The notes beneath the pieces were generated by a model that had not been told where the DNA came from, did not search any database, and was given only the letters and a program-made list of their open reading frames with translations. Positions 12,485 to 40,500 of a DNA stretch of 61,169 nucleotides are shown piece by piece; the first letter of the stretch is position 1; each line of letters begins with the position of its first letter. Both the position numbers and the translations under genes were made by a program. The stretch comes from a virus. Taxonomy: Duplodnaviria; Caudoviricetes. Location of the stretch: positions 1-61,169 of IMG/VR virus record IMGVR_UViG_3300031227_000040; one strand, written 5' to 3'.

Positions 12485-12646
12485 ATGAAGAAAAAAGAAT
12501 TATTAAGCAGATTAAGTGACGTTATTACTGCTTATTCTAAGGATCATACCGACTCAGTGGATAAGGATGAAGAGAAAGAATTTACTAAGAATGTTCGAGC
12601 CTGTGAAGAAGTTGAGAGATACTTTAGAATATCTTATCCTGGATGA
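12485..12646 (+). CDS. hypothetical protein (53 aa)
   Basis: Read manually: MKKKELLSRLSDVITAY...; ATGA overlap with the rtcB start. Confidence 0.6.
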   Translation: MKKKELLSRLSDVITAYSKDHTDSVDKDEEKEFTKNVRACEEVERYFRISYPG

Positions 12647-13839
12647 AAAAAGTAATATCAACAGAAAGGAACCCAATTAAATTGTGGACTGAAGACGTGG
12701 AAGATGGAGCCATGGTTCAATTAAAGAACCTGGCTAATCTGCCCTTCATCCACAAATGGGTCTGTGCTATGCCTGATTGTCATCAGGGTTATGGCATGCC
12801 TATTGGTGGAGTAATCGCCACTAGAAATGTCATCATTCCTAACGCAGTCGGCGTGGACATTGGCTGTGGAATGTGTGCTGTTAAAACCTCCTTAACAGAA
12901 ATAGATACTGAGACTCTTAAGAATATTATGGGGAAAATTAGAGAAGCTATCCCTGTCGGATTTGAACATTATGAAGAGAAACAAGACCAAAGTTTAATGC
13001 CAGAATATAGTAAAGATATGATTAATGGTGTTGTAGTTGCTGAATATAATAATGCTCAAACACAAATAGGAACTCTTGGTGGTGGTAATCATTTTATCGA
13101 GATTCAAAAAGGTTCTGACGGACATATTTGGATTATGATACATAGTGGTTCAAGGAATTTAGGATTTAAAGTTGCTAAACATTATAACGAAGTTGCTAAA
13201 AAATTAAATAAGCAATGGTTTAGTTCAGTTCCTGAAGATCAGGGCCTAGCATTCTTACCAATACAAAGTGATGAAGCTAAGGCTTACTTAAGAGAAATGA
13301 ATTATTGTATAGATTTTGCTTTGGCTAACAGAAAATTGATGATGAATAGAGTAATGGAAATCTTTATAGATAAAATAGATTATTCTTATAAAGGTGGAAC
13401 AGAAACTAAGACTGGATGTGTTGAATTTGAGCCAATGATAAACATCGCTCACAATTATGCTGCTTGGGAAAATCATTTTGGAAAGAATGTTTTAGTCCAT
13501 CGCAAAGGAGCTACGCTTGCCAGGAAAGGAACAATAGGAATTATTCCTGGAAGTCAGGGAACTAAGTCTTATATAGTTGAAGGACTTGGTAATCCAGATA
13601 GCTTTATGTCTTGTTCTCATGGAGCGGGAAGAAGAATGGGAAGAAAACAGGCCAAGAGAGAGCTAGATCTAAAAGCAGAGCAGGATAAGATGAAAGGTAT
13701 TCTTCATTCCGTTAGAGGAGTTGAGCAATTAGATGAAGCTCCCGGTGCTTATAAAGACATAAGTACGGTTATGGGAAATCAAAAGGATTTAGTGAAAGTT
13801 TTAGTCGAACTTTCCCCCTTAGCTGGTATTAAAGGCTAA
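12643..13839 (+). CDS. rtcB: RtcB RNA ligase (3'-P/2',3'-cyclic-P to 5'-OH)
   Basis: MPDCH.GYG.PIG, GVDIGCG, GTLGGGNHF, HSGSR, HNY, HRKGA, SHGAGR, DEAPGAYK. Confidence 0.95.
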   Translation: MKKVISTERNPIKLWTEDVEDGAMVQLKNLANLPFIHKWVCAMPDCHQGYGMPIGGVIATRNVIIPNAVGVDIGCGMCAVKTSLTEIDTETLKNIMGKIREAIPVGFEHYEEKQDQSLMPEYSKDMINGVVVAEYNNAQTQIGTLGGGNHFIEIQKGSDGHIWIMIHSGSRNLGFKVAKHYNEVAKKLNKQWFSSVPEDQGLAFLPIQSDEAKAYLREMNYCIDFALANRKLMMNRVMEIFIDKIDYSYKGGTETKTGCVEFEPMINIAHNYAAWENHFGKNVLVHRKGATLARKGTIGIIPGSQGTKSYIVEGLGNPDSFMSCSHGAGRRMGRKQAKRELDLKAEQDKMKGILHSVRGVEQLDEAPGAYKDISTVMGNQKDLVKVLVELSPLAGIKG

Positions 13840-20442: not shown

Positions 20443-21579
20443 ATGTATACAGTAAATTTGGAGTATCTAGGAAAGATGCTCCCACTTTATTTTAAGTTGA
20501 AGAAGCCTTTGTATTTGTGGGGGAAACCCAGTACGGCAAAGTCTTCTATCATTAGACAGTTCGCAATAGAAGAAGCTGCGAAAAGAAAGTTAGAATATTC
20601 GGAGGATAAATTTGGTCCTCAATATTTCACTTGTAAAATAATTCCTTTATCCCAATTTGATGCTCCTGATTTAAGGGGTATGCCTGAGATTAAGAATGGA
20701 ATGACAACCTTTATTCCAGGCTGTGAGTTACCACGTGACGGTCAAGGAATAATTTTCTTTGACGAAATGAATTTGGCAGATGAGATAGTTCGTAAAGCTA
20801 TGTATCAGTATATCTTAGAAGGTAGGTATTCAAATCTTCCTCCTATCTATGATAAGAATGGACAGCTTTCTTATTGGAGAGTAGCTGCTAGTAATGAAGA
20901 GAGTGACTTTAGTAATGTCGGGAGGTTAAGACTGGCTTTACTTAGAAGATTTCATCACTTAAAGGTTGTGCCTGAGTCTAAGGAAATATTAGATTACTTT
21001 AGTAAGATTGGAGCGAATTCAATGGTGATAGCATATCTTCTTAATTATCCTACTGATTTGTTTCCTCATCCATATGATGAGAAATTGTTAGAAGCTAAAG
21101 CAAATCCATTCCCTTGTATGTGGGAGGCAGTCTCAGATTATATGTTAGCCTATCCTGATTTAAAAGGTAAGGGTAAGATGAATGATCTTAGAATTTTTGT
21201 TTCCTCCTCAGTGGGATTAGGAGCTGCTGCTAAGTTCATAGGTTTCTTAACCATGGCAACTAAGCTAAAGATTAAAGATATAATTAAGGATCCTAAGAAA
21301 GAAATTAAGAAGATTGATAAAGAGGATGAAAAGATTTCATTACTTTATGCTGTAATTGCTTCTCTTCAAGAGCGTTGGGTAAGAACTAAGAGTGCACTTA
21401 CTCCTCAACAAGTCGAGGGAGTATTAACTTGCCTTGATGTTGAATTCCAAACAGCATTTTTAAAGTTGTTAATGGGAGGCCAGAAAGGTAAGAGAAAAAT
21501 TCCTAAACTCTTGGCACAACCAGGAGTTACTAAAGCTATACAAGACCTTGGAATTTATCTAAATGATGATAATGGATAG
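20443..21579 (+). CDS. MoxR-type AAA+ ATPase
   Basis: Walker A variant GKPSTAKS, DLRGMP, Walker B IIFFDE, AASN, ALLRRF arginine finger. Confidence 0.85.
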   Translation: MYTVNLEYLGKMLPLYFKLKKPLYLWGKPSTAKSSIIRQFAIEEAAKRKLEYSEDKFGPQYFTCKIIPLSQFDAPDLRGMPEIKNGMTTFIPGCELPRDGQGIIFFDEMNLADEIVRKAMYQYILEGRYSNLPPIYDKNGQLSYWRVAASNEESDFSNVGRLRLALLRRFHHLKVVPESKEILDYFSKIGANSMVIAYLLNYPTDLFPHPYDEKLLEAKANPFPCMWEAVSDYMLAYPDLKGKGKMNDLRIFVSSSVGLGAAAKFIGFLTMATKLKIKDIIKDPKKEIKKIDKEDEKISLLYAVIASLQERWVRTKSALTPQQVEGVLTCLDVEFQTAFLKLLMGGQKGKRKIPKLLAQPGVTKAIQDLGIYLNDDNG

Positions 21580-22777
21580 AGAAAGATTTATAAGAGCTAA
21601 GATTCAAATGCTAGTTGATGAACCTTTCTTCGGTCAGTTAGCATCTTACTTAGTTCCTGTTGAAGTTGATAAGAAACTCTGTCCAACCATGGGTGTAAAT
21701 CAATTGGGAGAATTATATGTGAACCCAGAGTTTGTAGATAGTCTTCCCTTTAAAGAACTTAAGGGGGTTTTAATGCATGAGATTCTTCATCTTGCATTGT
21801 TACATCCCTCCAGAGTTCAAGACTTTAATCATAGATTGTTTAATGTAGCTGCTGATTTAAAGGTAAATGATATCCTTCTTAATGGAAATAAAGAAGTTTG
21901 TCTTCCTAAAGACGGAATCTTTCCTAATTATAGACATGAATGGGCTTTGGGAAAGATTAGAATTGAAAAGATTGATGAGAAAACTGCTGAACAAATCTAT
22001 CATGAGCTACAGAAACAGTGTCCTAAAGAGAAAAAGATTAAAGTAATGCTAGATTTAAAGTCTTCGACAGGACAAAATGATAAGAATAATAAGAAAGGCA
22101 AAGGCAAAGGAGGAGCAAATATACCAGGAAATAGTAGAGCCTTAACAAAAGAAGAAATGGAAACAGCAAAGAATGCTTGGTCAGATAAAGTTAATGGTCT
22201 AAAGGTCCAGGGATTGATGCCAGCTAATATAGATAGAGCCTTAAACAAGTTAAGAGCTCATAAGATTACGTGGAATTCTTGGTTGAACGGAAGGTTTGCT
22301 AGAATAGTTAAAGAAAGATCTTGGTCTAGAGCAAATAAAAGATGGCTTCCATGGTATTATCCAGGAGCTTCTAAAGTAAAAGGACTACGTTGTGTAGTTG
22401 CTGTGGATACTTCAGGTTCAATTTCCGATAAGGAATATTCGGAAATAATTTCCGAACTCTATGGAATCTATAATGATTTTAGAGGAGCAGTTGAGATGAT
22501 AGTTATTTCTTGTGACTCAGAAATACATGATGTATATTACTTAAAAGAAAATGAACAAGAGAAATTGAAGAACATAAAATTAAAAGGCGGTGGTGGTACA
22601 GATTTTAATCCAGTCTTTAATTGGATTAGAAAAGAACTTAGGCAAGAGGTCGATTGTCTATTGTACTTCACTGATGGCTATGGAGATTTTCCCCCTAGAG
22701 CATTACCGTTTGATACTATGTGGGTAATGACAAGTGATGTTAAACCTCCATTTGGCAAAACATTAAGCTTGAAATAA
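21563..22777 (+). CDS. DUF2201-type HExxH metallopeptidase + VWA domain protein
   Basis: PFFG.L, HEILH, FNVAAD..VN; MIDAS DTSGSIS, GGGGTDF.PVF, FTDGYG. Confidence 0.88.
   Translation: MMIMDRERFIRAKIQMLVDEPFFGQLASYLVPVEVDKKLCPTMGVNQLGELYVNPEFVDSLPFKELKGVLMHEILHLALLHPSRVQDFNHRLFNVAADLKVNDILLNGNKEVCLPKDGIFPNYRHEWALGKIRIEKIDEKTAEQIYHELQKQCPKEKKIKVMLDLKSSTGQNDKNNKKGKGKGGANIPGNSRALTKEEMETAKNAWSDKVNGLKVQGLMPANIDRALNKLRAHKITWNSWLNGRFARIVKERSWSRANKRWLPWYYPGASKVKGLRCVVAVDTSGSISDKEYSEIISELYGIYNDFRGAVEMIVISCDSEIHDVYYLKENEQEKLKNIKLKGGGGTDFNPVFNWIRKELRQEVDCLLYFTDGYGDFPPRALPFDTMWVMTSDVKPPFGKTLSLK
22440..22454. promoter_or_regulatory. 15-bp palindrome CGGAAATWATTTCCG, copy 2 (intragenic)
   Basis: CGGAAATAATTTCCG inside the VWA gene. 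Confidence 0.35.
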
Positions 22778-26402: not shown

Positions 26403-28025
26403 ATGGAAGTTAAAGACGATAAAATCTTTCAGTGGTTGAAGGATCAAAAGATCTATACAGATAGTGGAGAACCATTTGAGTTTGAACAACATGGATTTTT
26501 AAAAGATTTATTTACAAATTTTAATAAGAACATTGTAGTAAAGAAATGTTCACAGATTGGTGTTTCTCTTGCGTTACTTTCAAAGATACTTTACTTATCA
26601 GATACTATGGACAAGAGAGTTAATACTCTTTATACTTTACCAACTGATGATGATGTTAAAGATTTTGTCAGAACTAAGTTTGACCCTATTGTTTTGGATT
26701 CTTATTTGAGTAAGTATGCGGAGGGTGTACGTAAAGAAGATAAAGTTTATTCCATTCAATTAAAGAAGATCTCTAATTCATTCTTTTACTTTAGGGGGTC
26801 TAAATCTAAATCAAAAGCTTTAAGTGTTTCAATTGATATCTGGATAGGAGATGAATGGGATTACCAAGATCAGAACATTAAGGAAATGTATTCTGAAAGA
26901 CTTAAGGGTTCTGGTTCTTTAAGAATTAATTGGAAGGTAGGGAATCCTACAATTCCAAATTACGGAATAGCTAAAGAGTTTGAAGACTCTACTCAGAATT
27001 ATTGGTACATTACTTGTCCAATGTGTAGACACGTGCAGCGTTTAGTTTGGCCTGATTCTATAGATAAAGAAAGAAAGGTATACGTATGCCGTCAGTGCCA
27101 GCGTCCTCTCACTGATGAGGTAAGGCTAGATGGTAAATGGATCCCAACCTACCCGGATCGTAAGCTAAAGGGTTATTCCTTTAACAGATTAATGGCTACT
27201 TGGTTCACGGCCGAAGATATACTTGATGACTTTAAGGTTAAGAAGATAGAGAATTTTTATAGATTTGTTTTAGGAGAATCATATGAAGGTAAGGGGATTA
27301 ATATTAAGACTAAGTTTAAAACTTTCTTAACGGACTATAAAATAAAGGAAGGTAAGAGAATTATAGGAATAGATCAGGGAGATAGATTCTATGTGGTCTC
27401 CGGTATAGCTGGAAAGAAACATAGGATAATCGATTATGCTGCTGTATTTGATAACCCTGCTGAGATTAATGAGATGATCGCTGAATTAAAACCTGAACTA
27501 GTTGTGATGGATGCTTTACCTAACAAACACTTAGGGAGGATTTTCCAAAAGCAGTATGGTAAAAATAAATTCCTCCTAGCAAATGAGAGAGAGAAATCTT
27601 TAAAGGCGGTTGAATCTTTAGATATTGATCATAGACTTGGGGTTGTTAGTGCTGATAGAACTATGGTACTAGATGAAATGTTTTCATTCCTTGAGTCTGG
27701 AGTTTTAAAAATAAATAAGAATACTTCCAATCAGGACCTTTTCAAAGATCATTTATCTTGTATCGTTCCAGAAGAAAAAGAAATTCGTGGAGTCTTAAGA
27801 AGAAGATACAAGAAGATTGGTGAAGATCATTTAGCCTTTGCTTTATCCTTTTTTCAAATTGGTGCAGCCATTATGGTCCCAATTAAAATAGAAAAGAAAA
27901 AAGATTTGGATAAAAAAGATTTGGAAAAGAAAGAACATAGCAATGATATTATGGATGATAAAGATTTCCGTAAAGCATTGGCTGGAAAAGAAACAGATAA
28001 ATGGGAAGAGATAACAACAATTTAA
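26403..28025 (+). CDS. terL: terminase large subunit (lambda gpA-like)
   Basis: KCSQIGVS Walker-A variant, WIGDEWD Walker B, GNPT, CPMC...CRQC Zn finger, RNase H-like IGIDQG, and DH near the C-terminus. Confidence 0.9.
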   Translation: MEVKDDKIFQWLKDQKIYTDSGEPFEFEQHGFLKDLFTNFNKNIVVKKCSQIGVSLALLSKILYLSDTMDKRVNTLYTLPTDDDVKDFVRTKFDPIVLDSYLSKYAEGVRKEDKVYSIQLKKISNSFFYFRGSKSKSKALSVSIDIWIGDEWDYQDQNIKEMYSERLKGSGSLRINWKVGNPTIPNYGIAKEFEDSTQNYWYITCPMCRHVQRLVWPDSIDKERKVYVCRQCQRPLTDEVRLDGKWIPTYPDRKLKGYSFNRLMATWFTAEDILDDFKVKKIENFYRFVLGESYEGKGINIKTKFKTFLTDYKIKEGKRIIGIDQGDRFYVVSGIAGKKHRIIDYAAVFDNPAEINEMIAELKPELVVMDALPNKHLGRIFQKQYGKNKFLLANEREKSLKAVESLDIDHRLGVVSADRTMVLDEMFSFLESGVLKINKNTSNQDLFKDHLSCIVPEEKEIRGVLRRRYKKIGEDHLAFALSFFQIGAAIMVPIKIEKKKDLDKKDLEKKEHSNDIMDDKDFRKALAGKETDKWEEITTI

Positions 28026-28026
28026 T

Positions 28027-31000
28027 ATGGATACACAAAAGTTTTTAAAAGAGGTTAGTGCATCTAGGGAGATTCATGATAACTTCCTTAGTGCTACTGA
28101 AAAGAATTTATCGTATTTCTTTTGGGGAAAAGATCAGGAGATTGTAACTTTCAAAAAGGGTTTGTTTTCCTATGGGGATTTTATTAGTGCGATGGAATCT
28201 GTGGCCCCAAGTGCTTTTAATCCTAGTTTAATTCCTTTACAGATAATGTTTCAAGAGATGGGGAATTCTAAGATTAAAGTTCGTACAGCTCCTACTGGGG
28301 CTTTAACTAAAGTAGATGGAGCGTTTGAATTTGGGATTGAGTTATCTCAAAAGCTTACTAATATGTTTGAGAACTTTAGTCCTCATGGATTGACGGCCTT
28401 GTTTGAAATGATTAATCATTCTTACATGGTCTTTTATTTAGATGCAGGCCATGGGACAATACATTCATTAAGTTGTTCAGATTTTTATCCTGGAGATTCA
28501 GAGATCTCAGACTTACAATCACAACCATTTGTTGTTAGATTAACTAGTCCTCGTAAAGAATTATTACTAAGAAGTATTCCTAACTCTACTGATCCCAGAA
28601 TAAATTCCTCCGCTTATCATGATATTACTAAGCTATCTGAATTAACTGCAGTTCCTATTATAGATATCTGGAGTAAGGCAATTAATAAGAGAATCTTTAG
28701 CCTCCCTACTGGTGAGGTTTTATTTGAAGATGAAATGCCGGATGTAAAGACTTATCCTTTCTTTAAAGCTAGTGATAATCTTAGTCCTAATCGTTGGTAT
28801 ACTATGCCTATCATGTCAAAAATAAGACCGTTGCTTGAAAAATATAAGAAGGTTACAATGGCTATTGATCATGCAACTCATGCACAAGCTAGACCTTTGT
28901 TAGTTTATGATGAAGAAGCTTCTATTAATATTCCTAAACTTAAAGCTCAGTTGCAAGAGGGTGGTAAGAATATTCTAGTAGGTAAGAGTGAGATAGGTGA
29001 TATTCGTTACAAGCAACCCGGGCAGCTTCCAGAGTATGTCTTTGCTCATCAAGCAAATTTACTTGGTCAGATAAATCAATTACTAGGGATTGCTGGGATG
29101 GCTAGAGTTGGTGCAGTTAGAGAGAAGGGGGCCGTTGAAGCAATGATCCGCTCTTCTTTACGTCAGTTCATTTTCTATTCTAATCAGATTAGAGGAGCTA
29201 TAGTTAAGGCTAGTGATTACTATACTAGATATGTTCAGACTCATCGCCTACAATTTTTAAAAGAATTTAATGCTTTAAATTCCCCCTCTCCTTTATGGAC
29301 AGAGGGAGGTTATAAATCAGAAGTTGAGGTCTTACCTTCAGTAGCTTCTAGAACTTCAACTGAACAAGCTTTTATTTTGAGAAAGAATGATAAGGGACTT
29401 ATTTCTAAAGAACAAGCTCTTAGAGAATTAGGATATTCTAATCCTGATAGACAAAAGAAAGAATTAAATGAAGAGATATTAAGTCAAAAGAAATTAGCTG
29501 AAGAACTTAAGAGACCTTCACTTTCTTTACGTCAGGAAGTAGAACAGGTATTGGGTCCAGTATTAGGATACGTGCCAGATGTTCTTCTCTCTGGAGATTC
29601 TAAAGCAGTTGTTTCAGTTAATGAAAAGGATGTTGAGAAGTCACGTTTCTTATTAGGAGATATAAATGATAGAGTTTATATAGACGGATCAAGAGATCCA
29701 GAAACAAAGTCAGAAGAGGTAGAGTCTATGAGAGACAGAGTATCTGAACAACCTGCTCAACCGCCCATGGAAGCTAAGCAACCAACTGAGCAACCGGTTG
29801 AACAGCCAGCTGAACAGTTAGCTGAGCAGCCAGCCGAAGAACCAGTTGAGAAAGCTGAAACTACTAAGGAAGAAGCTCCTAAAGAAGCTGCTCCTAAGAT
29901 TAGTAAGTTTAAACAGATACTTGAAAAGTTAATTGAGATTTCTAAGGTTGGAATAAAGAAAGAAGCTGTAGGAAAGTTCATAAGTAAGTATCCTGGAATT
30001 TATTTAGCAGACCCAGCAGGTAATGATATCTATAGTGGGAAGAAATTAATGATAGTTAAGTCTAGGTTATTTGATATTATAGATAAGCCTCATATTTTAT
30101 TAGGGGGGAAGTTTGCCTATGGTGTTATAGTGCCACGTCTCCAGTTTAAAATGGATAAGAAAAGATTTCTAGAATTAGAGAAGTATCATTTAATATCTGA
30201 TAAACAGAGAAAGGAATGGTGGGACAATAAACCTTTACATGGATATTTATTTGAATTTCATAAGTTTGAGGAACCAGTAGAATGGGAACGCAAGCCTGGG
30301 GTTAAGAACTTTGTCAAAGCTCCAATTCCTTTGCGAACTGAGCACCTTGGTGTTCCGTATACGGGGGATTTAAAACCAATGAACTTAACTCCTTTTAAGA
30401 TTCCGCCTCCTGCAAAGCCAGAGAAGAAAGCTTTCCAGCCCTATGAAATATTTTCCCCCACTAGATTAAAAGATGTTATTCCAGTAGGAACTTATAATGT
30501 ATCAGAGAAGATAGATGGCATTAGAACTTTCTGTTGGAAGGTGGGAGATAAGGTCAAGTTCTTCACGGATACAGGAAACGAAATTAATGCTGCTAAACTT
30601 ACATTAGTAGCTGACTCAGTACGTAGTCTCTTTAAAACTCAGGATGTTTTATTAGATGGTGAGTTAGGAATGAAGGGGGCCAAACATGAGAGTGTTACAG
30701 GATTTGTGAGTAAGACTAGTCCGACTCCCGAAGAAAAAGCTGCCGTTGAATATATTACTTGGGATATTCTTTACTTGAATGGTAAGTCTTTAGCAGATAA
30801 ACCTTTCATAGATCGTTATAGATTACTTAATCTTAAGATTAAACCTGGACAAGCTAAGGGGAAAATTAGAAGAGTTAAAACAACTAATGCTTCTAGGGAC
30901 CAATTAGCTAAAGCAACTAAGACAGTAACTTCTCCAGAAGGCGTAGTCATTAGAGATATTGATGCAGCTTACTGGGCAACTCATGCAATGTACAAGATGA

Positions 31001-31407
31001 AGAAGACTGCTGACTTAGATGTTAAGATTATTCATGTAGAAAAAACTAAGAATAATCTCCCTGTCTTTCACTGTGCCTTAAGGGATGGAACTTATATGGG
31101 CCAAACCTATGCTCAGGGCGAAGTTAAAGCGATTAGAGGGGATGTTATTCGTGTGATGGTAGATCATTTTACAATTAGACCTGATGGTTCTATAGGGTGG
31201 TTTGCTCCACGTCCTAAAAATATTAAGTCTCCAGGCGCAGCATCTCTTAAACAGAAAGGTATTGGGAGTCCTGATACAATAGCATTTGTTAAGGAACATT
31301 ATCTCAGTCATTCTGGTACAGAGGAAGCTTGGAATAAATGGTTCCCAGCATTTAAAGCTTGGAGAATAGGTCCGATGAAAAAAATAATTAGTAAGTTAAA
31401 AGAATAA
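28027..31407 (+). CDS. portal protein fused to ASCH-like domain and ATP-dependent DNA ligase
   Basis: Directly after TerL with a ~500-aa helical portal-like N-terminus; PAEQ linker; GIYL..P....IYSGKK...K (ASCH-like); ligase motifs EKIDG, LLDGE, WDILYLNG, EGVVIR, KMKK plus an OB-like tail. Confidence 0.8.
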   Translation: MDTQKFLKEVSASREIHDNFLSATEKNLSYFFWGKDQEIVTFKKGLFSYGDFISAMESVAPSAFNPSLIPLQIMFQEMGNSKIKVRTAPTGALTKVDGAFEFGIELSQKLTNMFENFSPHGLTALFEMINHSYMVFYLDAGHGTIHSLSCSDFYPGDSEISDLQSQPFVVRLTSPRKELLLRSIPNSTDPRINSSAYHDITKLSELTAVPIIDIWSKAINKRIFSLPTGEVLFEDEMPDVKTYPFFKASDNLSPNRWYTMPIMSKIRPLLEKYKKVTMAIDHATHAQARPLLVYDEEASINIPKLKAQLQEGGKNILVGKSEIGDIRYKQPGQLPEYVFAHQANLLGQINQLLGIAGMARVGAVREKGAVEAMIRSSLRQFIFYSNQIRGAIVKASDYYTRYVQTHRLQFLKEFNALNSPSPLWTEGGYKSEVEVLPSVASRTSTEQAFILRKNDKGLISKEQALRELGYSNPDRQKKELNEEILSQKKLAEELKRPSLSLRQEVEQVLGPVLGYVPDVLLSGDSKAVVSVNEKDVEKSRFLLGDINDRVYIDGSRDPETKSEEVESMRDRVSEQPAQPPMEAKQPTEQPVEQPAEQLAEQPAEEPVEKAETTKEEAPKEAAPKISKFKQILEKLIEISKVGIKKEAVGKFISKYPGIYLADPAGNDIYSGKKLMIVKSRLFDIIDKPHILLGGKFAYGVIVPRLQFKMDKKRFLELEKYHLISDKQRKEWWDNKPLHGYLFEFHKFEEPVEWERKPGVKNFVKAPIPLRTEHLGVPYTGDLKPMNLTPFKIPPPAKPEKKAFQPYEIFSPTRLKDVIPVGTYNVSEKIDGIRTFCWKVGDKVKFFTDTGNEINAAKLTLVADSVRSLFKTQDVLLDGELGMKGAKHESVTGFVSKTSPTPEEKAAVEYITWDILYLNGKSLADKPFIDRYRLLNLKIKPGQAKGKIRRVKTTNASRDQLAKATKTVTSPEGVVIRDIDAAYWATHAMYKMKKTADLDVKIIHVEKTKNNLPVFHCALRDGTYMGQTYAQGEVKAIRGDVIRVMVDHFTIRPDGSIGWFAPRPKNIKSPGAASLKQKGIGSPDTIAFVKEHYLSHSGTEEAWNKWFPAFKAWRIGPMKKIISKLKE

Positions 31408-31409
31408 TT

Positions 31410-32141
31410 ATGTATACAAACTACTACATCGCAGGTGTTCGCGATGGTAAAAAAACTAGAGTCTTTAATAAGAATCTTCATCAGGGTATTTTAGCTGCAA
31501 GGAAAATTGGTATGAAGCCTACATCGAAAGATGCTTATGGTTATGACTCTAAGAAAAAGAAATGGGAAAGTTTAAAAACTTCTGCTCCTGTTGCTGCAAC
31601 TTTTAGGAAAGATGCTGCTAAGTCTTTATTAGAAAAAAGTAAACCAGTTAAAAGGATAAAGAAAGATTTTAAAGAAGTAAAACAAATGACTCGTGGATTG
31701 ACTGCTAAATCTTTATTGGAGAAAGGTATAAAAAGAACTAGTGATAATGCAAAGGCAATAATTGGAGTTGGAGCTGCTATTCTTAAAGGAGGACAGAAGA
31801 TTTTAAAGAAAACTAATTTTATAGTTCCAGCTGTTAAACTCTTAGGGGAAAAAATTAAGGTAGCAAAATCTACCATAGAAGCTAATCAAGCTCGTAAAGA
31901 TCTATTGAAAAAGTTCAGTGACGATTTACCTTCCACTATAATGGGAGCAGACAATTACAATAAAGCAGTTAGGACTATTGATGATTACTTAAAGAAAGGA
32001 AACTATGTAGCTGCTTCTAATTATATGGTTACTCAATTATTCAAGTTAGAGAATCAGACAAGAGGAACAGGAAGTAATACATACGTAGCAGATAAACTTG
32101 GTAATTGGTATGGGAAACATTTAACTTTTCCTGAAGAATAA
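31410..32141 (+). CDS. basic hypothetical protein (head module)
   Basis: Lys-rich; internal repeat AKSLLEK x2. Confidence 0.6.
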   Translation: MYTNYYIAGVRDGKKTRVFNKNLHQGILAARKIGMKPTSKDAYGYDSKKKKWESLKTSAPVAATFRKDAAKSLLEKSKPVKRIKKDFKEVKQMTRGLTAKSLLEKGIKRTSDNAKAIIGVGAAILKGGQKILKKTNFIVPAVKLLGEKIKVAKSTIEANQARKDLLKKFSDDLPSTIMGADNYNKAVRTIDDYLKKGNYVAASNYMVTQLFKLENQTRGTGSNTYVADKLGNWYGKHLTFPEE

Positions 32142-32143
32142 TT

Positions 32144-32377
32144 ATGACTAAGAAACAAATATATAAAGTTACGTATCATGATATTTCTTCTATCAACAAT
32201 GAGGTTATTGTAAAACCTTATAAGAACTTGATGGCAACATGTTATATCATTGGGGAAATTCTTGAGGACGAAGATACTATTGTGGTAAAATATGGTGGAG
32301 GAATTGGGGAAGAAGATAATGATAGTTGCTTTGATGTTATTCCTAAATGCTGTGAAATAAAAAGAGAGAAGATATGA
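32144..32377 (+). CDS. conserved small phage protein
   Basis: V.Y.D...C...G....IPK.C pattern typical of small beta-barrel phage proteins. Confidence 0.5.
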   Translation: MTKKQIYKVTYHDISSINNEVIVKPYKNLMATCYIIGEILEDEDTIVVKYGGGIGEEDNDSCFDVIPKCCEIKREKI

Positions 32378-32661
32378 ACAAAGAAATCTTTCAGTTAACT
32401 ATGATTAGTCGTAGACTTTCTACCTTAAAAGGAAATAAAGGCAAGGTTTTTCTAGTAGGGGGAATGATTACGAATGGTCGGTCCGTTAGAGACATTGATA
32501 TTTTAGTTCAGAAGAAAGAAGATATTCCTTTAGTTAAAAAAGCAATGGGTCCATTTAGTAAGGATGTTCATTACTCAGTTGATAAAGGAAGCAGACCTAG
32601 TTCTAGATCTTACTTAACAATAGAACCAAAGAGTTTACCAGAAGTTAATAAGATCTTCTAA
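32374..32661 (+). CDS. minimal nucleotidyltransferase (Pol-beta superfamily)
   Basis: KVFLVGG-MITNGRSVR-DIDILV matches hG[GS]x9 DxD. Confidence 0.7.
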   Translation: MNKEIFQLTMISRRLSTLKGNKGKVFLVGGMITNGRSVRDIDILVQKKEDIPLVKKAMGPFSKDVHYSVDKGSRPSSRSYLTIEPKSLPEVNKIF

Positions 32662-33554
32662 TGAAAATAGATACAGAAAAAGTTAAGGGGAAATCTTATA
32701 AGGTTTATAAAGGAACTAAGATTCCTACTAAGGCAGAATTTTTAAGACGGGCTTTAAAGAAAGCTAAAGATTTAGACGTACATGAGAAGTGGATTGACTT
32801 CATTCCGGCTACCTTTACACTTCAATTACATGGTTGGTTTGATGAAGGAAGTTATGGAAAAGGCAAACAGGCCTTGACAAAAATAATATCTATTGTTAAG
32901 ATATCTTTAAAGAATCATGAAGACCCAATTCTTAACCTAAAGTATGGAAAGTTTCATTATGATTTACGAATAAAAAAGAAAGGTTCAGTTACATGGTTTG
33001 GTTTAACTACCTTTCGATTACCTTGGACCGGGACCCCTGAAGATAAAGTAATGGGAACTGTCAAAGGTTATCAAGCTCTAGTTAAGGGGTCTGAAAAATT
33101 AAATAAGTTTTTAAGAACAAAAGCAGAAGAAGCTTTAACTACTCAAGGAACCTCCGAACGTAGAGATCGTCCAAAGTGGATGAAGATTAAAGCAGAGTTC
33201 TGGAATCCTCCTGGACTAGGAACTCCTACTGGACAGCCTGGTGTAATGATAGCAATCGAATATTTAAAACCATGTGTTGTTCATAGAAGAGAATTAGATT
33301 TTCTGGATGCAACATTTATAGGAGAATTTTTTAAGGGAAGATATTACGATAGGCTAGTTGAAAGGAAATTAGAAAAAGGTTTTGGTTTAGGATTCTATTT
33401 TTGGAGAGCGAAACGTGCATGGAGTTTAGCAGCCATGGAGAAAATTGCTAAGGGTCAGACTAAGAAAGAATCAGTAGAAGTAAAGACTCAAGATGAAACT
33501 AATGAAATACAAATCTCCCTTAAGCCTAAATGGAAATATAAAAGTTCGAAATAA
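32661..33554 (+). CDS. LigD-type 3'-phosphoesterase (PE) domain protein
   Basis: FTLQLH ... FHYDLRI matches PE F..Q.H / HYD.R; late GEFFKGRY resembles the PE G..L.G.Y strand. Confidence 0.6.
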   Translation: MKIDTEKVKGKSYKVYKGTKIPTKAEFLRRALKKAKDLDVHEKWIDFIPATFTLQLHGWFDEGSYGKGKQALTKIISIVKISLKNHEDPILNLKYGKFHYDLRIKKKGSVTWFGLTTFRLPWTGTPEDKVMGTVKGYQALVKGSEKLNKFLRTKAEEALTTQGTSERRDRPKWMKIKAEFWNPPGLGTPTGQPGVMIAIEYLKPCVVHRRELDFLDATFIGEFFKGRYYDRLVERKLEKGFGLGFYFWRAKRAWSLAAMEKIAKGQTKKESVEVKTQDETNEIQISLKPKWKYKSSK

Positions 33555-33576: not shown

Positions 33577-33822
33577 ATGGCTGAGAAAAAAATAATTCTA
33601 GTTTGTCCTAAGTGTGGCGCAAAAGAGGAAGTCGCAATAGGAACAAAAGATTTAAAATGTAAAAAGTGTAACATTGCTATGCTTCCTGAAGAGAAGGCTA
33701 AGGCTTTTGCTAAGGTTTATGCAGCTGCTAATGTTAGACGAAGACGTAGAGATGCGGCTAGAGGTTTAGCTAGAGGTTTAGCTAACAAGACTGAAGCTGG
33801 CTATGGATACGGTGCAAAATAA
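33577..33822 (+). CDS. Zn-ribbon protein
   Basis: CPKCG...CKKC followed by an Arg-rich tail. Confidence 0.6.
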   Translation: MAEKKIILVCPKCGAKEEVAIGTKDLKCKKCNIAMLPEEKAKAFAKVYAAANVRRRRRDAARGLARGLANKTEAGYGYGAK

Positions 33823-34029: not shown

Positions 34030-34821
34030 ATGAAATTAAAGTTTAGCGAAAAAAAAGAAGAAGAAGAAACTAAAAAAGACGAAGAAGTTAAAGAAGAAAA
34101 GAAAGAGGAAAAAACTGTAGAAAAAACTGTAGAAAAAACTGAAGAGGAAGTTGTAGTCGCTCCTGATAAGTTTATGGAAGCTATCAATGCAGTTAAAGCA
34201 GGTCAAGAAAAGCTGGGGGAAAAACTTGGAGATGTTAACACTCGTCTTGATGTAATGGAAGAGGAAAAAGAAGAAGATTTTAATAGTGTTGGTGATGATC
34301 TATTTAAAGAAGATGAACCTGTTAAGGAAGAACCTAAGACAGAAGTTAAGGAAGATATTAAAAAGACAGAGGAACCTGATCTTGAAGCAGCTATTGCTGA
34401 TGAGGAAGGCTTTAGAAATAAAGTCTCCAAAGGTCAGAGATCTATTGCAGAACGACAAGATAAGATTGAGAGAAAGATTGATGAAGGTGAACTTAAAAGA
34501 GAAGTAGGAATTGCTAAAGAAAAATTCCCCAACGCAAAAGATACTGATATCCTTAGAGGAATAGCAGATGATCCTAACAAGTCAGCTATGGAAATAGCTG
34601 AAGAACTAAGTACAAATTTTGATAATACACGCAATGAAATGCGTAAAGAAATTAAAGAGGAACTTGAAGCAGAGGTAAAAAAAGAGCAAAAAGGTAACGT
34701 CTCTTTACCTCAGACACCAGGTTCAAAAGACTCTTCTACTGAAAATCCCGCTGAAGCTGGGGGCTTAGACCCTTGGCAAGATGCTAGGGATAAAGCAAAG
34801 TCGGAAGTTGAAGAAGAGTAA
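34030..34821 (+). CDS. capsid scaffolding protein
   Basis: Very E/K-rich coiled-coil protein directly upstream of the MCP. Confidence 0.75.
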   Translation: MKLKFSEKKEEEETKKDEEVKEEKKEEKTVEKTVEKTEEEVVVAPDKFMEAINAVKAGQEKLGEKLGDVNTRLDVMEEEKEEDFNSVGDDLFKEDEPVKEEPKTEVKEDIKKTEEPDLEAAIADEEGFRNKVSKGQRSIAERQDKIERKIDEGELKREVGIAKEKFPNAKDTDILRGIADDPNKSAMEIAEELSTNFDNTRNEMRKEIKEELEAEVKKEQKGNVSLPQTPGSKDSSTENPAEAGGLDPWQDARDKAKSEVEEE

Positions 34822-34851: not shown

Positions 34852-35856
34852 ATGTCCTTAATTGCAGAATTAACAGCTGCAACTCACAAGTATTACTCTC
34901 CAGTAGTCATTGATCAGATTTTTCAGTACTCACCTTTATTGTATAGAATATTCAAAATTGCTAAGGAAGGTTCTTGGGGTTTAGCACAAACAACTAGTGG
35001 TGGTCGTAAGATTGCAGAAACGCTAGAGTATCAGGAAACCGCTCAGGCTTCCGGGTCTCATGGTGGATACGCAAGCTCCGACACATGGGTCGCTGATGAC
35101 GAAGATTCATTAACTCAGGCTGAATATAGCTGGAAAATGTATCACGCAACCGTCAAGATTCCAAACATCACAGTATCAGAGAATTCAGCGAAAGCTAGAA
35201 TCTTCGATATTGCCGCCATTAGGTTGAAGAATGCTTCCAAAACTCTTAGAAAAGATCTAGCAACTGACCTCTATGCAGATGAAACCGGTGAATCAGGTAC
35301 TACAATGATGGGTTTACGCGCACTTGTCAAAGCCACTGGTACTATTGGTGGAATTGATAAGGGAAGTTACTCATGGTGGCAAGGTGTCATAAGCACAGCT
35401 GAATCAAATCGTACATTAACTTGGGCGATCTTGAACGACTTGTTTATGGATACTAAGCATTATGGTGACGGAGTCGCTTTATCTCTCTTTGTCTGTTCAG
35501 ACGGAGTAATGCAGAACTATGAAGATACCTATACCAAAGTCGTTGGTGCAGATACTTCTACTTCAGGTGTTCGCTTAGCTTTACAATCTGGTAAAGTACT
35601 TGAAGGTGGATTCAGATCCTTTATGTTCAAAGGAATCCCAATCGTTTCAGATCCTTTTTGTCCCGCAAACAAACTATTCGGTTTAACAGAACAATTCCTA
35701 CATGCTAGAATTTTAAAACAATTTGGAACTCTCGGTTGGAAATCAATTGAAGATCAAGGTAAGGATTACCTCCAGGCCACTTTTAAAGGTTATTTAGCTT
35801 TTACTTGTAGTTGTGCTAGAAAGCAATCTATGGCTGAAGCTTTGACTGAAGCTTAG
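34852..35856 (+). CDS. major capsid protein (HK97 fold, podovirus-type)
   Basis: 334 aa after the scaffold; Y.WK..., LYAD, GL.ALV...GTIGGID....WW, FKGIPIV.DP motifs; followed by a terminator hairpin. Confidence 0.85.
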   Translation: MSLIAELTAATHKYYSPVVIDQIFQYSPLLYRIFKIAKEGSWGLAQTTSGGRKIAETLEYQETAQASGSHGGYASSDTWVADDEDSLTQAEYSWKMYHATVKIPNITVSENSAKARIFDIAAIRLKNASKTLRKDLATDLYADETGESGTTMMGLRALVKATGTIGGIDKGSYSWWQGVISTAESNRTLTWAILNDLFMDTKHYGDGVALSLFVCSDGVMQNYEDTYTKVVGADTSTSGVRLALQSGKVLEGGFRSFMFKGIPIVSDPFCPANKLFGLTEQFLHARILKQFGTLGWKSIEDQGKDYLQATFKGYLAFTCSCARKQSMAEALTEA

Positions 35857-36851: not shown

Positions 36852-37534
36852 TGAGAGGCGCGTATGAAATCCTAATCTATATTGATGAAGATAGATATCC
36901 TGTAAGGAAGATGATTCAAACTTTTAAGAGTATACGTTACTTTCTTTCAAAGGGTAGAGCTCCTAAACATTTTAGATCATGGGGATTTCCATCAGTCTCA
37001 ATCTTGTTTAAGAATCCTAGTACTAAGAGGTTCATGAACATAAGAATGTATTACAAGTTTTATCCATGGTGGACTAGGATTTATTTTGGGGTTACTCCTT
37101 CTGAGTTCTTAAAGAATCGATTAGTAAGTCCACATACAAAAGCACTTTTAATTATACAAGCTCCTATAAAGTTTGGAGCGACTAATCAAGCTAGTCTTAT
37201 TAGATCAGCAAGATTCTTTGCCTCTGTAGTTTATCCTTTATATTCTAAGCAATGGAAATCTGCGGTAGCTAAGTATCCTGGGTTATTAGCTGTTCATAAT
37301 AAGACAAGGATTAGTGAGGGGGATTTTCAAACAGTTGGGAAAAGACTTAGTAAAGTCTGTCCATATTTCCAATCTGATTTCCGGAAATTATTTCCGAAAA
37401 AGAACTGGAAATGTTTTGCAATAAGAAGAAAAGGTTTGCATAATTTACAACATTATCCTGATGGCAGGATCGGGCCATCAGATAAGAATATAAGATTCAG
37501 AGTGTTACTTGATAATTTATATGACTCTTTATAA
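36851..37534 (+). CDS. basic hypothetical protein
   Basis: Packed ORF with TAATG overlap. Confidence 0.55.
   Translation: MRGAYEILIYIDEDRYPVRKMIQTFKSIRYFLSKGRAPKHFRSWGFPSVSILFKNPSTKRFMNIRMYYKFYPWWTRIYFGVTPSEFLKNRLVSPHTKALLIIQAPIKFGATNQASLIRSARFFASVVYPLYSKQWKSAVAKYPGLLAVHNKTRISEGDFQTVGKRLSKVCPYFQSDFRKLFPKKNWKCFAIRRKGLHNLQHYPDGRIGPSDKNIRFRVLLDNLYDSL
37382..37396. promoter_or_regulatory. 15-bp palindrome CGGAAATWATTTCCG, copy 3
   Basis: The 19-mer TTCCGGAAATTATTTCCGA is identical to copy 1; ~125 bp upstream of the giant ORF. Confidence 0.4.
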
Positions 37535-40500
37535 TCTATTTAAACAGCAAAGTTTACAACTCCCATCAGTATCAGAACGTAAGAAACTATATTCAGGATA
37601 TAAGCTGGGAGAGGATTATGTAGGTTCAGCTGAACAAAATATTAACTTAACCAAAGCTATTGAAAAAGATGTGCGAGCTTTTGATTCTTTTGTTAAGTCA
37701 TTAAAAACTCCTAAGGCTGTTGAGCCTAAGGAAGATATATTTAAAAAGGAACCGGTATTAGAAAGATCAGATCCTTTTGAGACAAGAGAATTAACTGTTG
37801 GTAAGACAGTTGGTGATTGGTTAAAGGAAAATAAAATAGAGTTTGAGGACTTTCAAAAGTTAAATCCAGCGTATAAGACACCGGATTTTAAGGTTGAGAG
37901 TCCTTTTAAAGTTAGAGTTGTTAAAGCTCCTAAGTTTTTAAAGGATTATCCTGAGCTAACAAATAGAACTGGGATGTCTATTGCACCAATTAAAATGATA
38001 AAGGAACCTTCTGAACTAGAGAAGATGATAAAGCAGACAATCCCTAATCTTTTAAAGGAAGGTATTAGAAAAATTCCTAAGCTTTTTGTTGGAGATAAAA
38101 ATATCTTTCCTCAGATAACTAGTGAGATAGCTAAAGGAATAAAGCAAACTAAAGAATTCTATAAGCAAAAAGATATTGAAAAGAAACTAGCTGATAAAAG
38201 TAAAGCTAAAAGTATTAGTTGGAATCCTAAGTCTATTTTAAAGTCTTTAATTTTACTTACTCAACCGGTAGCTCTTATAGAAAGAAGAGCAGATAAGAAA
38301 AAAGTTGAACTAGAAAAGAAAGAAGTTCAAACTTTAATTCCTACTATTAAAGATATTATAAGTGGAGACTCAAAGGTAGATATTAGTCGTAAAGAACAAT
38401 TAATACTGATTCAACCTAAAGAAGATAATCTTGGAGTCGAAGGAAATGCTGCTAGGTTAAAGAGATCTTTAAAAGAAACTGCTGACTTAAAGGAGGATTT
38501 TCTCCAAAAGAATATCACCTTAGTTTCTAGAGGAGATGAGATCACTGGGTTTACAGATGAGAAAGGAAAATATGAAGACTTCTATGAGTTAGATAAAGAT
38601 GTTAAAGAAGCAGAAGCGATGAAGGTAGAGGTAGAAGCACTTACTCAAAAGATAGGAGGGAATACTGCTAAGCTTCAGACTAACTCCGATGAATCTCTTA
38701 AGTGGCAAACTGAAATGTTTAACAATCTTGAGGAACGAACTGAAGTTATCTTCAGTATTATTTCAGATCCTGATATAATTAAAGACCCTTCCTTACTTGC
38801 TAAAATCTTTTCAATTTTCCCCTCACGTTCTAGCTTCATGTTAGGAGTTACTAAGGCCCCCGAAGAAACATTAATTCAAACTCCAGAGGTTAAAGAACTT
38901 ATCTCTGAGCTGGAAGGATTATATACTGAAAGAATGAAAGAGATTTTAGATGTTGCTTCTAGTGTCCAAGCTGGAGATGAAGCTGCTTCCACAAAATTCT
39001 GGGAGGGTCTTACAGAAAAGGAAATGGAAAATCTTGAAAGAGTAATGACTCTCAATAGATTGATTGGAGAGAAGGATGATTCAACTAAGATCCAAAAGAC
39101 ATGGGAACTAATGGAAGATCCTTATTTTCAGAAAGCCCTTTTAGATAGTTATGAATATCTTTCTGAAGAACAGAAAAAATTCTTAAAGCCTATAGTTGAA
39201 GTAGCTAGGTTAAATGCTGAGAGAGTTATTTTATGGCCACTAGTAAATAAAGAACTAGAATCTCAATCAGAAGAAGTAAAGAATTTGATAACTGAATATC
39301 AAAGTTTAATTGATAGTATTAATAGAAGGGTTGTAGTTCTTGGAGATCCTTCAGTCTCTGGGACTCTTGCTCATAATCTAGTTGAACTTAGTGAGACTGG
39401 TCAAGATTATTATAGAAGTATAAAACTATCTGAATTAAAGAGTGAAGCTGATAGATCAGAATTTCTAGAGACCTATGAGAGAGCTAGAACTTTTAAATCT
39501 ATGGCTAAAGCTAGAATGAATTTTCTACTTGGCCTTGGGAAAAAAACTGAGTGGCAACCTTGGAAAGCTTATAAGCAATCTTTATTCCCTGGAGGTTTTC
39601 AAACTTACTTAAGAGAAGGTGGAATTGGAATGGATCTTCCTCGCATAGTTAGTATCCCAATTTATCATGCTGCTAAATTTGGTTGGAAGACAATGATAAA
39701 AATGTGGGATACTGGTTTAGCTGCTGTCAGTACAGGAATTATAGCTGCTTTAGATATTACTTCTTCAGGATTCAAAGCTATTATAGAGAACCTTGGAGCT
39801 TTGTATGGGTATGAAGAGAAAGATGTTATTAATCAAACTACATTAGGGGAGTATCCATTTAAGGAAGATAATTTTCTTAGTAAGATGTGGAATGTTGCTT
39901 CTTTTAATGTATTCAATTTACCTGATGCTTCTAGATATAGTGATATCAAATCTATCCCAGTTGGAGAAAGATTTCTTCCTGAGAATATAGGTAAGTGGGT
40001 TGATTTTAAAAGAGGTGGATATATTCCACAAGTTTTTGCTTCTCAATATCATCCTCGTGCTTATGAAAAAAAGTTGATTGTTGAAACTTCTAAACCATTT
40101 GATCATCTTCCTAAAGAATTTATGGGAGTAAGAGAGGAATTTTTACAGTTAAATGGTTTAACTGAAAATTCAGTTTTAAAAATGGGACAAAGAATTATGG
40201 TTCCTACAGAGGCTTTTGTTTCTCCACGTAATTTACTTGATCCTAAGTTAGTAAACAAATTAGAGCAATCTCTTAATGGTAGATTAAGTTTGTTAGCTTT
40301 TGATTTTCTTGGATGGGTTAAGTTAGATCCACTTACAGTTTTTTGGAGTGGTATTGGTTCCACTTCTAAATCGATAATGAAACATATTTCCCCTAAGTAT
40401 GCTAAGCAATTAAAGACTAGGAAGGATCTGTTAGCTTTTTCTAAACAGTATTCTAAGTCTACTGATATCGCTGAGGATTTAGCTAGCTTTATTACAGGAG

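Follow-up and report, generated by a model that had tools for sequence, protein, structure and literature searches.

A candidate LigD-like end-processing set linked to a portal-like protein in the head module of a tailed phage

Background

To our knowledge, end joining in prokaryotes requires Ku together with a LigD protein that carries a primase-type polymerase. As described in two LigD reports, the polymerase adds ribonucleotides at break ends, the phosphoesterase (PE) either cuts these back until one 3' ribonucleotide is left or takes off a 3'-phosphate, and an end with a single 3' ribonucleotide is the one preferred by the ligase (PMC3300020, PMC7470946). Here we analyze a phage locus which resembles this set of activities. 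The window, i.e., the whole stretch of 61,169 bases that constitutes the entire linear IMG/VR record IMGVR_UViG_3300031227_000040, encodes an ATP-dependent DNA ligase domain at the C-terminus of a 1126-residue portal-like protein (28027..31407), a 95-residue protein bearing a nucleotidyltransferase signature, termed NT95 (32374..32661), and a divergent LigD-type 3'-phosphoesterase of 297 residues (32661..33554), all of them on the plus strand and within the head module.

Two further groups of described systems are relevant. The mycobacteriophages Corndog and Omega bring Ku, a part of the end-joining machinery, to recircularize their genomes on infection, according to PMC4351075, which cites Pitcher et al. 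(2006). Enzymes attached to portal or minor head proteins, for which packaging and delivery together with the DNA are predicted, are treated as polyvalent or portal- or MuF-fused effectors by Iyer et al. (2017; PMC5512222); the part of that report accessible to us names RNases, 2H phosphoesterases and InPase among the portal- and MuF-fused domains, and lists Pol-beta nucleotidyltransferases, predicted to modify proteins, among the polyvalent domains.

Results and discussion

We read the region as a phage version of the LigD end-processing toolkit that is physically tied to the portal, an interpretation which we favor by a narrow balance. That the ligase, NT95 and the PE form one functional unit is quite probable, and this unit would, with fair probability, act on DNA ends or nicks. 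The record has a CheckV completeness of 59% and a G+C content of about 33%, and every large open reading frame (ORF) is located on its plus strand, to which all window coordinates given here refer. As proposed in an initial annotation made from the sequence by eye, the trio is set inside the head block, upstream of a scaffold-like ORF and the capsid protein; the large terminase subunit precedes it. The motifs reported there (GG-x9-DID in NT95, FTLQLH and HYDLR in the PE) and the TAATG overlap between the two genes were all confirmed, and the absence of Ku held as well: neither Ku (PF02735) nor the LigD primase-polymerase (PF21686) was matched at E<=1 anywhere in the record, which is 59% complete, and no ATP-ligase domain was found in it besides the portal-linked one. 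The ORFs of NT95 and the PE share the TAATG overlap ('ttc taatg aaa') at 32659-32663, and an ATGA overlap at 32374-32377 couples the preceding 77-residue ORF to NT95. Both overlaps presumably reflect translational coupling and would favor a joint unit.

The PE carries FTLQLH at residues 52-57 and HYDLR at residues 99-103. Its homologues fall into 40 clusters, none of which has a Pfam domain. All 32 aligned homologues, at 35-72% identity, share H57, H99, D101 and R103, and their alignment contains 39 invariant columns, H208, R209 and R210 among them. An AlphaFold2 model based on this alignment (predicted local distance difference test, pLDDT, 84.5; predicted template modeling score, pTM, 0.80) was compared by VIA-align with 48,161 PDB representative chains. 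It matched the archaeal PE 3p4h_A with Z 11.8 and a root-mean-square deviation (rmsd) of 2.1 over 116 of 118 residues, and the PE of Pseudomonas aeruginosa LigD, 3n9b_A, with Z 10.9 and an rmsd of 3.3 over 130 of 148 residues; the third row had a Z of 3.1. In Foldseek searches, LigD-PE entries ranked first and accounted for seven of the top 12 rows, with probabilities of 0.96-1.00 and E-values of at least 5e-3, none of them reaching 1e-3. The 297-residue ORF is thereby predicted to adopt the eight-stranded beta-barrel fold of LigD phosphoesterases, a point on which the initial annotation had staked its interpretation beforehand. Additions to the barrel comprise a 47-residue N-terminal extension, helical insertions at residues ~61-95 and ~137-175, and a C-terminal tail. 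A CYTH (triphosphate-tunnel) fold was considered for the same ORF and rejected, the Foldseek E-values being at least 0.07 and the VIA-align Z 3.0.

Proteins in which ligase, NT95 and PE are fused in one polypeptide, described in more detail below, contain a more compact PE domain. The PE domains of 13 such relatives matched the window family in hhalign comparisons with a probability of 99.6 (E 1.5e-24, 153 columns), and the same 13 domains matched 13 canonical LigD_N domains from genomes with a probability of 98.0 (E 2.7e-13, 126 columns). When nine fused proteins were scanned with the Pfam LigD_N model, two scored above its cut-off of 31.1 bits (P0127, 34.7 bits; P0112, 35.7 bits), five scored below it and two gave no match. 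A profile of the fused family also matched the PDB entries 3p4h (4.1e-10) and 3p43 (1.4e-9). Judged from these alignments, the fused relatives constitute a sequence bridge from the divergent PE of the window to the LigD_N family.

In the PE of P. aeruginosa, His42, His48 and Asp50 bind Mn, and His84 and Tyr88 play an important part in both activities, as stated in the accessible portion of PMC3300020. H57, H99, D101 and R103 of the window protein correspond to His42, His48, Asp50 and Arg52 of this enzyme, and its HYDLR motif aligns to the canonical HYDLR. The PE genes of four related loci (L044:6657-8585; L027:2939-4816; L026:3072-4961; L045:6621-8510) contain in-frame insertions of ~325 residues which bear a LAGLIDADG domain. 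They occur at two different sites, after residue 109 and after residue 134 of the window protein; they begin with Cys and end in Arg or Gln, not Asn.

The co-occurrence of the three modules in other phages, which the initial annotation had left as a prediction, was examined in 46 loci retrieved with the PE alignment, in 45 of which profiles detect the PE. Linkage was counted in the 20 loci with at least 2 kb of sequence upstream of the PE gene; the other 25 are too short to judge, with a ligase or NT95 at the contig edge in six of them. A ligase domain is encoded upstream of the PE in 20 of the 20 judged loci. NT95 is present in 18, the two in which it was not found (L026 and L045) looking like the same phage, and a portal-like domain is likewise found in 18, the remaining two being cut by the contig end. 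Across these loci, the PE shares between 72% and 33% identity with that of the window. The genome bin that holds L045 has another contig (L048, G004:C51:910-1212) with a canonical LigD_N match in a 308-residue frame (E 5.2e-26); binning of phage contigs is unreliable, and L048 was not used for host inference.

Three arrangements can be distinguished. In the window clade (PE identity 72% to ~40%), a protein composed of portal, middle domain and ligase is followed by separate NT95 and PE genes. In loci L028-L032 (PE identity 33-35%), portal, NT95 and ligase are joined in this order in one ORF, with the PE gene after it. In the third arrangement, found in loci L063-L065 and in 13 cluster representatives, a domain 'X', ligase, NT95 and PE form one polypeptide. 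The position of NT95 thus shifts from a separate gene to the N-terminal side of the ligase to its C-terminal side, while the trio is kept. A full HMMER search with an NT95 profile yielded 99 cluster representatives at E<=1e-3, 97 of which were confirmed with local profiles and sorted by architecture: 36 are stand-alone NT95 proteins of up to 200 residues, 22 are portal-NT95 and three portal-NT95-ligase proteins, 13 are X-ligase-NT95-PE polypeptides of 555-1329 residues, five are other ligase fusions with NT95, and 18 are other NT95 proteins longer than 200 residues. In 25 of the 97 representatives, NT95 is therefore a C-terminal domain of a portal. Pfam confirms the ligase and LigD_N domains in the fusions. 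The joining of all three modules in one polypeptide (P0095-P0139; L063:8986-12687) is stronger evidence of joint function than the initial annotation could have hoped for. The complete ligase-NT95-PE unit of P0129 spans 555 residues, and this protein may be a fragment.

The 'X' domain makes up the N-terminal ~250 residues of the fused proteins. It matched phrog_16951 (function unknown) in seven of nine proteins and no Pfam family. Protease-like GH..D and GS.S motifs were seen by eye, with CxxC pairs after the domain, and the prohead protease families S77 and S78 are among its nearest named clusters by ESM Atlas features (0.91). We regard a prohead protease identity of the domain as a lead and do not adopt it; if 'X' were such a protease, it would carry the enzymes fused to it into the procapsid as well.

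The ligase domain, whose presence had been noted initially, was verified by several searches. It comprises residues 802-1126 of the portal-linked protein (30430..31407). Pfam DNA_ligase_A_M matches residues 825-992 (nucleotides 30499-31002) with an E-value of 7.2e-18 and 65.4 bits against a cut-off of 26.2, and phrog_114 ('ATP-dependent DNA ligase') matches at 8.5e-21; the closest PDB sequences are archaeal and eukaryal DNA ligases (4.8e-5). By eye, the domain reads K828-I-D-G-I-R, in which we take K828-I-D-G to be the KxDG motif with the motif I lysine of ligases. The OB-fold region, represented by Pfam DNA_ligase_A_C, gave no match in the window protein; residues 993-1126 are homologous to a region of the fused relatives in which the phrog_114 match extends as far as position 516-525 of 634.

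Inteins tend toward conserved catalytic sites of active, important proteins. The portal-ligase ORFs of the two closest relatives (L001:2688-7040; L002:2679-7079) contain a canonical intein of ~330 residues inside ligase motif V, which starts with Cys and ends with His-Asn followed by Cys (MYK|C...HN|CKK); the window ligase itself is free of such an insertion. From its position in the sequence, we count this intein in favor of a LigD-like toolkit.

Pfam mRNA_cap_enzyme also matches the ligase region, with 26.8 bits for the window protein (cut-off 29.6), 31.5 bits for L006 and 29.6 bits for L001. A capping enzyme was rejected as the identity of this domain on account of the far higher DNA ligase score (65.4 versus 26.8 bits), and the match is the usual cross-talk within the superfamily. 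The capping scores have a bearing on the possibility that the whole set is directed at RNA: the ligase-like domain would join or cap RNA, the PE would remove 2',3'-cyclic or 3'-phosphates, and NT95 would rebuild 3' ends, the system serving in tRNA repair against host anticodon nucleases and entering the cell along with the DNA. RNA 3' ends are substrates of many Pol-beta-type enzymes, which would fit such a role of NT95. The known chemistry of the PE, aimed at 3' ribonucleotides and 3'-phosphates in the account accessible to us (PMC3300020), is compatible with it, too. However, the DNA_ligase_A_M score is far above the capping score, and all PDB sequence matches of the domain are DNA ligases. 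Moreover, an RtcB-type RNA ligase is already encoded at 12643-13839 (phrog_1075 'tRNA splicing ligase', E 1.3e-123), so that RNA repair has an enzyme of its own in this phage, distinct from the portal-linked DNA ligase, and tRNA repair leaves the portal link without explanation. We consider an RNA-directed function improbable.

The N-terminal half of the ligase protein (residues 1-560; 28027..29706) lies directly downstream of the terminase gene, and its length of ~560 residues fits the 500-600 residues expected of a portal. The portal identity assumed in the initial annotation is supported by transitive profile comparison, but not by direct matching: neither Pfam nor PHROG portal profiles recognized the window protein or five of its homologues. 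The portal-domain family aligned to the N-termini of 27 X-NT95 proteins, where X stands for the part preceding NT95, with an hhalign probability of 98.1 (E 7.3e-14, 393 columns). Three of five X-NT95 proteins scanned score above the cut-off of Pfam SPP1_portal; a profile built from these three recognizes 25 of the 27 X-NT95 N-termini, and the portal-domain family matches them with a probability of 96.5 (E 7.4e-10). The order terminase, then portal, is seen in all 12 related loci in which the terminase gene is visible, all of them from the window clade. We therefore regard the N-terminal half as a probable portal homologue, as supported by this chain of profile matches.

Portal and ligase are connected by an acidic, proline-rich, low-complexity stretch of ~80 residues (~560-640; 29707..29943), read from the translation as EQPAQPPMEAKQPTEQPVEQPAEQ..., which may act as a flexible tether. 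It is followed by a conserved middle domain of ~160 residues (~640-800; 29944..30426). This domain is conserved in all full-length homologues and also occurs N-terminally in P0113 and P0133. The initial annotation had called it ASCH, a name which found no support, as the domain gave no Pfam match at E<=1 and no PDB sequence match. The portal-ligase frame is uninterrupted in every full-length homologue seen, with portal E-values from 1e-229 down to 1e-15.

NT95 reads G29 G30, nine residues, D40 I41 D42 (VGG-x9-DIDIL), which we take for the signature hG[GS]-x9-13-Dh[DE]h of Pol-beta nucleotidyltransferases. G29, G30, G35, D40, D42 and D50 do not vary in any of the 19 homologues aligned, which come from related loci. 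A word-indexed homologue search with the 95-residue ORF returned only the query itself; local phmmer and full HMMER searches did find relatives. The AlphaFold2 model (pLDDT 76.3) shows the order helix-strand-loop-strand-helix-strand-strand, which is that expected of a minimal nucleotidyltransferase, as far as the model goes. Among structure rows from the ESM Atlas, six of ten aligned to Polbeta or NTP_transf_2 with template modeling (TM) scores of 0.59-0.68, all below the bar of the tool. Conservation of the signature tracks linkage to a ligase: among 21 ligase-linked NT95 domains, 20 retain D40 and all 21 retain D42, as compared to portal-only NT95 proteins with D40 in 12 of 22 and Asp or Glu at the place of D42 in 13 and eight of 22, respectively. 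On this evidence, derivation of NT95 from the Pol-beta fold is likely. Complex prediction for the PE and NT95 gave a score of 0.00, which speaks neither for nor against binding.

The best structural neighbor of NT95 (TM 0.71) is part of a 288-residue ESM Atlas cluster annotated as Peptidase_S78 prohead protease. NT95-like domains are also located C-terminally in proteins of ~250-380 residues that local profiles do not recognize (P0068-P0131, 18 proteins of 207-809 residues). Both observations suggest that NT95 may be a general add-on of head-assembly proteins.

If the trio works as a LigD-like toolkit, the PE would clean the 3' end, removing a 3'-phosphate or ribonucleotide tracts, NT95 would probably add or position a nucleotide in the place of the LigD polymerase, and the ligase would seal the end. 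Needing neither Ku nor a primase-type polymerase, the unit would have the phage genome itself as its substrate, either sealing or repairing it as it is packaged, or sealing and circularizing it right after ejection. The C-terminus of portal proteins faces the capsid interior, where the enzymes could reach the genome while it is packaged or afterwards. As the ligase, and elsewhere NT95, is located within the portal polypeptide, the unit would most likely be incorporated at the portal vertex of the procapsid, in up to 12 copies. Whether the trio is present in the virion is, in our estimate, close to evenly balanced, with a slight lean toward doubt. A specific version, which we hold to be unlikely, assumes twelve tethered ligases inside the capsid at the portal crown which, together with packaged PE and NT95, form a self-contained, Ku-independent machine for healing and sealing ends. 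Such a machine might check and seal the genome while it is threaded in. Alternatively, since a pre-adenylated packaged ligase could seal once without ATP, such a ligase, released with the DNA, might need neither host ligase nor ATP to seal or circularize the genome and might do so within seconds after entry; any action after ejection would require cleavage of the linker.

A number of observations, assembled in this and the following paragraphs, weigh against a toolkit of this kind. Searches with LigD_N and NTP_transf_2, the families to which the initial annotation had related the PE and NT95, gave no direct match to the two ORFs. For the PE, Pfam and PHROG models found no direct match; LigD_N (PF13298) gave none to the window protein at E<=1, nor any in the record at E<=10, and phmmer and PE family profile searches against PDB sequences returned nothing useful. 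An hhalign comparison of the window PE with canonical LigD_N covered the HYDLR segment only (21 columns, probability 9.7). We ascribe this failure of the hidden Markov models (HMMs) to the two helical insertions (residues ~61-95 and ~137-175). With respect to catalysis, the place of His84 is taken in the window family by Gln138 or Asp169, depending on where a 31-residue insertion is placed, and that of Tyr88 by Trp173; the fused relatives retain the His (YHD) and have Trp for Tyr. The window PE may consequently have altered activity or none. Of the LigD-like PE proposed at the outset, fold and metal ligands stand, but not the catalytic His; on this evidence, the ORF has the fold and the metal site of a PE with a changed active site.

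The Pol-beta assignment of NT95 fared similarly, in that the motif is present, but structural neighbors are weak and non-significant and profile matches are missing. None of 19 NT95 members matched Pfam nucleotidyltransferase families at E<=0.1, such families had no match in the record at E<=10, and comparison with nine NTP_transf_2 domains gave an hhalign probability of 34 over a 24-column stretch restricted to the motif. The fold search against the PDB reached a best Z of 4.7; the minimal nucleotidyltransferases 1ylq (4.2), 1wot (4.1), 2rff and 1no5 (both 3.8) tie, at Z 3.8-4.2, with BON, BolA and other small alpha/beta folds. A third catalytic carboxylate on a strand was not seen in the model, in which D50, the sole further invariant acidic residue, opens the helix that follows strand 2. 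The residues kept most generally are G29 (97 of 97 representatives), G35 (94 of 97) and D50 (86 of 97), not those of DxD, and the frequent loss of DxD in portal-only NT95 proteins suggests that the domain may be structural. That NT95 is active in the window lineage is accordingly a tentative proposition, about which we are somewhat doubtful.

These features would also fit largely non-catalytic head proteins recruited from enzymes, with NT95 and the window-type PE serving structural or DNA-binding functions at the portal vertex and only the ligase being active. The missing His84 and the large added helical segments in the PE, the degenerate DxD of portal-only NT95 with D40 in 12 of 22, and the prevalence of G29, G35 and D50 over DxD across all NT95 groups would be accounted for in this way. 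Against such a loss of catalysis stand the metal-binding His-His-Asp and the Arg of the PE, which are invariant in 32 of 32 sequences at 35-72% identity, and the DxD, which 20-21 of the 21 NT95 domains linked to a ligase retain. The LAGLIDADG insertions in the PE of four loci also argue for function, inteins in general favoring active proteins. We deem exaptation very unlikely, as compared to the LigD-like toolkit.

The linkage data have limits of their own. The pairs L020/L037 and L026/L045, at a minimum, look like duplicates, so that the independent count is lower than 20, and all loci may share one ancestral arrangement, in which case 20 of 20 does not represent 20 independent events. The 12.8-kb locus L066 encodes a portal-NT95 protein with neither ligase nor PE detected (of the locus searches for portal-NT95, that with P0055 gave none and that with P0092 two loci). 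In L063 and L064, the fused gene is oriented divergently beside a replication-initiator gene, with a capsid gene ~2 kb off; given this neighbor, the third arrangement is not strictly a head-module gene.

Location in the capsid is likewise vulnerable. We infer packaging of the ligase, the PE and NT95 from the portal link, and a portal domain is left behind in the capsid when the DNA is ejected; a tethered ligase would therefore reach the cell only if cleaved off. It is conceivable that the ligase is an ordinary intracellular replication or repair enzyme with the PE and NT95 as cytoplasmic helpers, the portal fusion being resolved before assembly by proteolysis of the linker or by internal initiation, and nothing enzymatic being present in the capsid. 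The portal-linked ligase, as the only ATP-ligase domain of the record, might have to serve replication too, and the long low-complexity linker is a plausible cleavage site; the fused genes of L063 and L064, adjoining a replication-initiator gene, point in the same direction. Against resolution of the fusion stand the portal-ligase frame, intact in every full-length homologue seen, and the C-terminal attachment of NT95 to portals in 25 of 97 representatives. Another ligase may exist, the record being 59% complete, and why a replicative ligase should require a PE is not obvious. We rate an intracellular ligase of this type as rather unlikely, although less so than the RNA-directed and the non-catalytic alternatives, and retain the portal-tied toolkit as the preferred interpretation.

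The head block begins with the large terminase subunit TerL (26403..28025; Pfam GpA_ATPase 6.7e-24; phrog_675 7.2e-84), immediately followed by the portal-ligase gene. Between ligase and NT95, two ORFs of 243 and 77 residues (31410..32377) matched no Pfam or PHROG family; the 243-residue ORF was recognized in L001 and L002, the closest two loci, but in no other. The PE gene is followed by an 81-residue ORF (33577..33822) with weak Pfam zinc-ribbon matches below cut-off (best E 0.0016), recognized by phmmer in the closest loci L001-L004 only, by an acidic ORF (34030..34821) assigned as scaffold-like from its position and composition, and by the gene of the major capsid protein (34852..35856; phrog_9953 major head protein, 1.7e-33), which closes the block. 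In two related loci (L012:10602-12632; L044:10390-12533) the capsid protein match is in two pieces 0.5-1.3 kb apart, suggesting an intron, an intein or an inserted gene.

After the head genes, a single ORF of 4505 residues (37509-51026), rich in lysine and glutamate, was observed, which might conceivably encode a giant tail, injected or polyvalent protein. Two glycosyltransferase genes (phrog_2170, 7e-12 and 2.5e-42) are located at 3056-5216 and 8240-8974, and another gene matches heptose kinase/adenylyltransferase, phosphoheptose isomerase and, more weakly, polynucleotide kinase profiles; the glycosyltransferases and the heptose-type gene point to sugar-modification functions in the phage. 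At 20443-22777, an ATPase (phrog_1297, 5.3e-44) is followed, with overlapping reading frames, by a 404-residue protein of the 'HNH endonuclease' PHROG (phrog_1314, 5.2e-77).

Comparison with known systems

If the preferred interpretation is correct, healing and sealing chemistries have been rebuilt around a very small nucleotidyltransferase-like domain and joined to a portal, and the trio has been kept across phages with PE identities as low as 33%. If the enzymes are packaged, DNA repair would join the short list of functions borne by phage heads, as a class of packaged enzymes not described for tailed phages in the partially accessible literature searched, and would offer a new way to survive host nucleases or to circularize the genome. 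The compact natural ligase-NT95-PE fusions could serve as end-repair reagents, and the window-type PE, being devoid of His84, offers an experiment of nature on the residues required for the PE mechanism.

Like LigD in Ku-dependent non-homologous end joining, the phage set combines an ATP-dependent ligase, a PE of the same fold and metal motif, and a nucleotide-adding module, at least presumptively in the case of NT95. LigD modules, too, are fused in varying order or encoded by neighboring genes, as described in the accessible part of PMC7470946. In contrast to LigD/Ku systems, the phage record has no match to Ku or to the archaeo-eukaryotic primase (AEP) type, and a Pol-beta-like domain of ~90 residues takes the place of POL. 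The ligase is closer in sequence to archaeal and eukaryal ligases (5.1e-17) than to the LigD ligase of Mycobacterium tuberculosis (3.3e-8). The window PE further differs from that of LigD by its two helical insertions and the absence of His84, and the set is phage-encoded and portal-fused. The stand-alone PEs of archaea (Candidatus Korarchaeum and Methanosarcina; 3p4h, 3p43) resemble that of the window clade in being separate polypeptides, but have ~120-150 residues as compared to 297.

Minimal nucleotidyltransferases (MNT / NTP_transf_2) share with NT95 the hGG-x9-DhDh signature, the size and the order of secondary structure elements, and MNT-type clusters dominate its ESM Atlas neighbors. 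Unlike them, NT95 has neither an HMM-level match nor a HEPN partner and is attached to portals, ligases and PEs.

With the polyvalent and portal- or MuF-fused effectors, which we take as a precedent for packaging, the phage proteins share the attachment of enzymes to head proteins; the portion of PMC5512222 accessible to us names no portal fusion of a DNA ligase or a LigD-type PE, and its supplementary architectures might hold one. Corndog and Omega supply Ku and borrow the LigD of the host, according to the available part of PMC4351075, whereas the phage described here supplies the ligase, the PE and the nucleotidyltransferase-like part, with no Ku seen. Neither a ligase-NT95-PE protein nor a LigD-type PE from a phage nor a fusion of portal and ligase was found described in the literature searched, which was accessible in part and in which the supplement of PMC5512222 could contain such a fusion. 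Each part belongs to a family already known, and enzymes fused to portals are an established theme; the novelty lies in the way the parts are combined, in the primase-type polymerase being replaced, in the lack of Ku, and in the tether to the portal.

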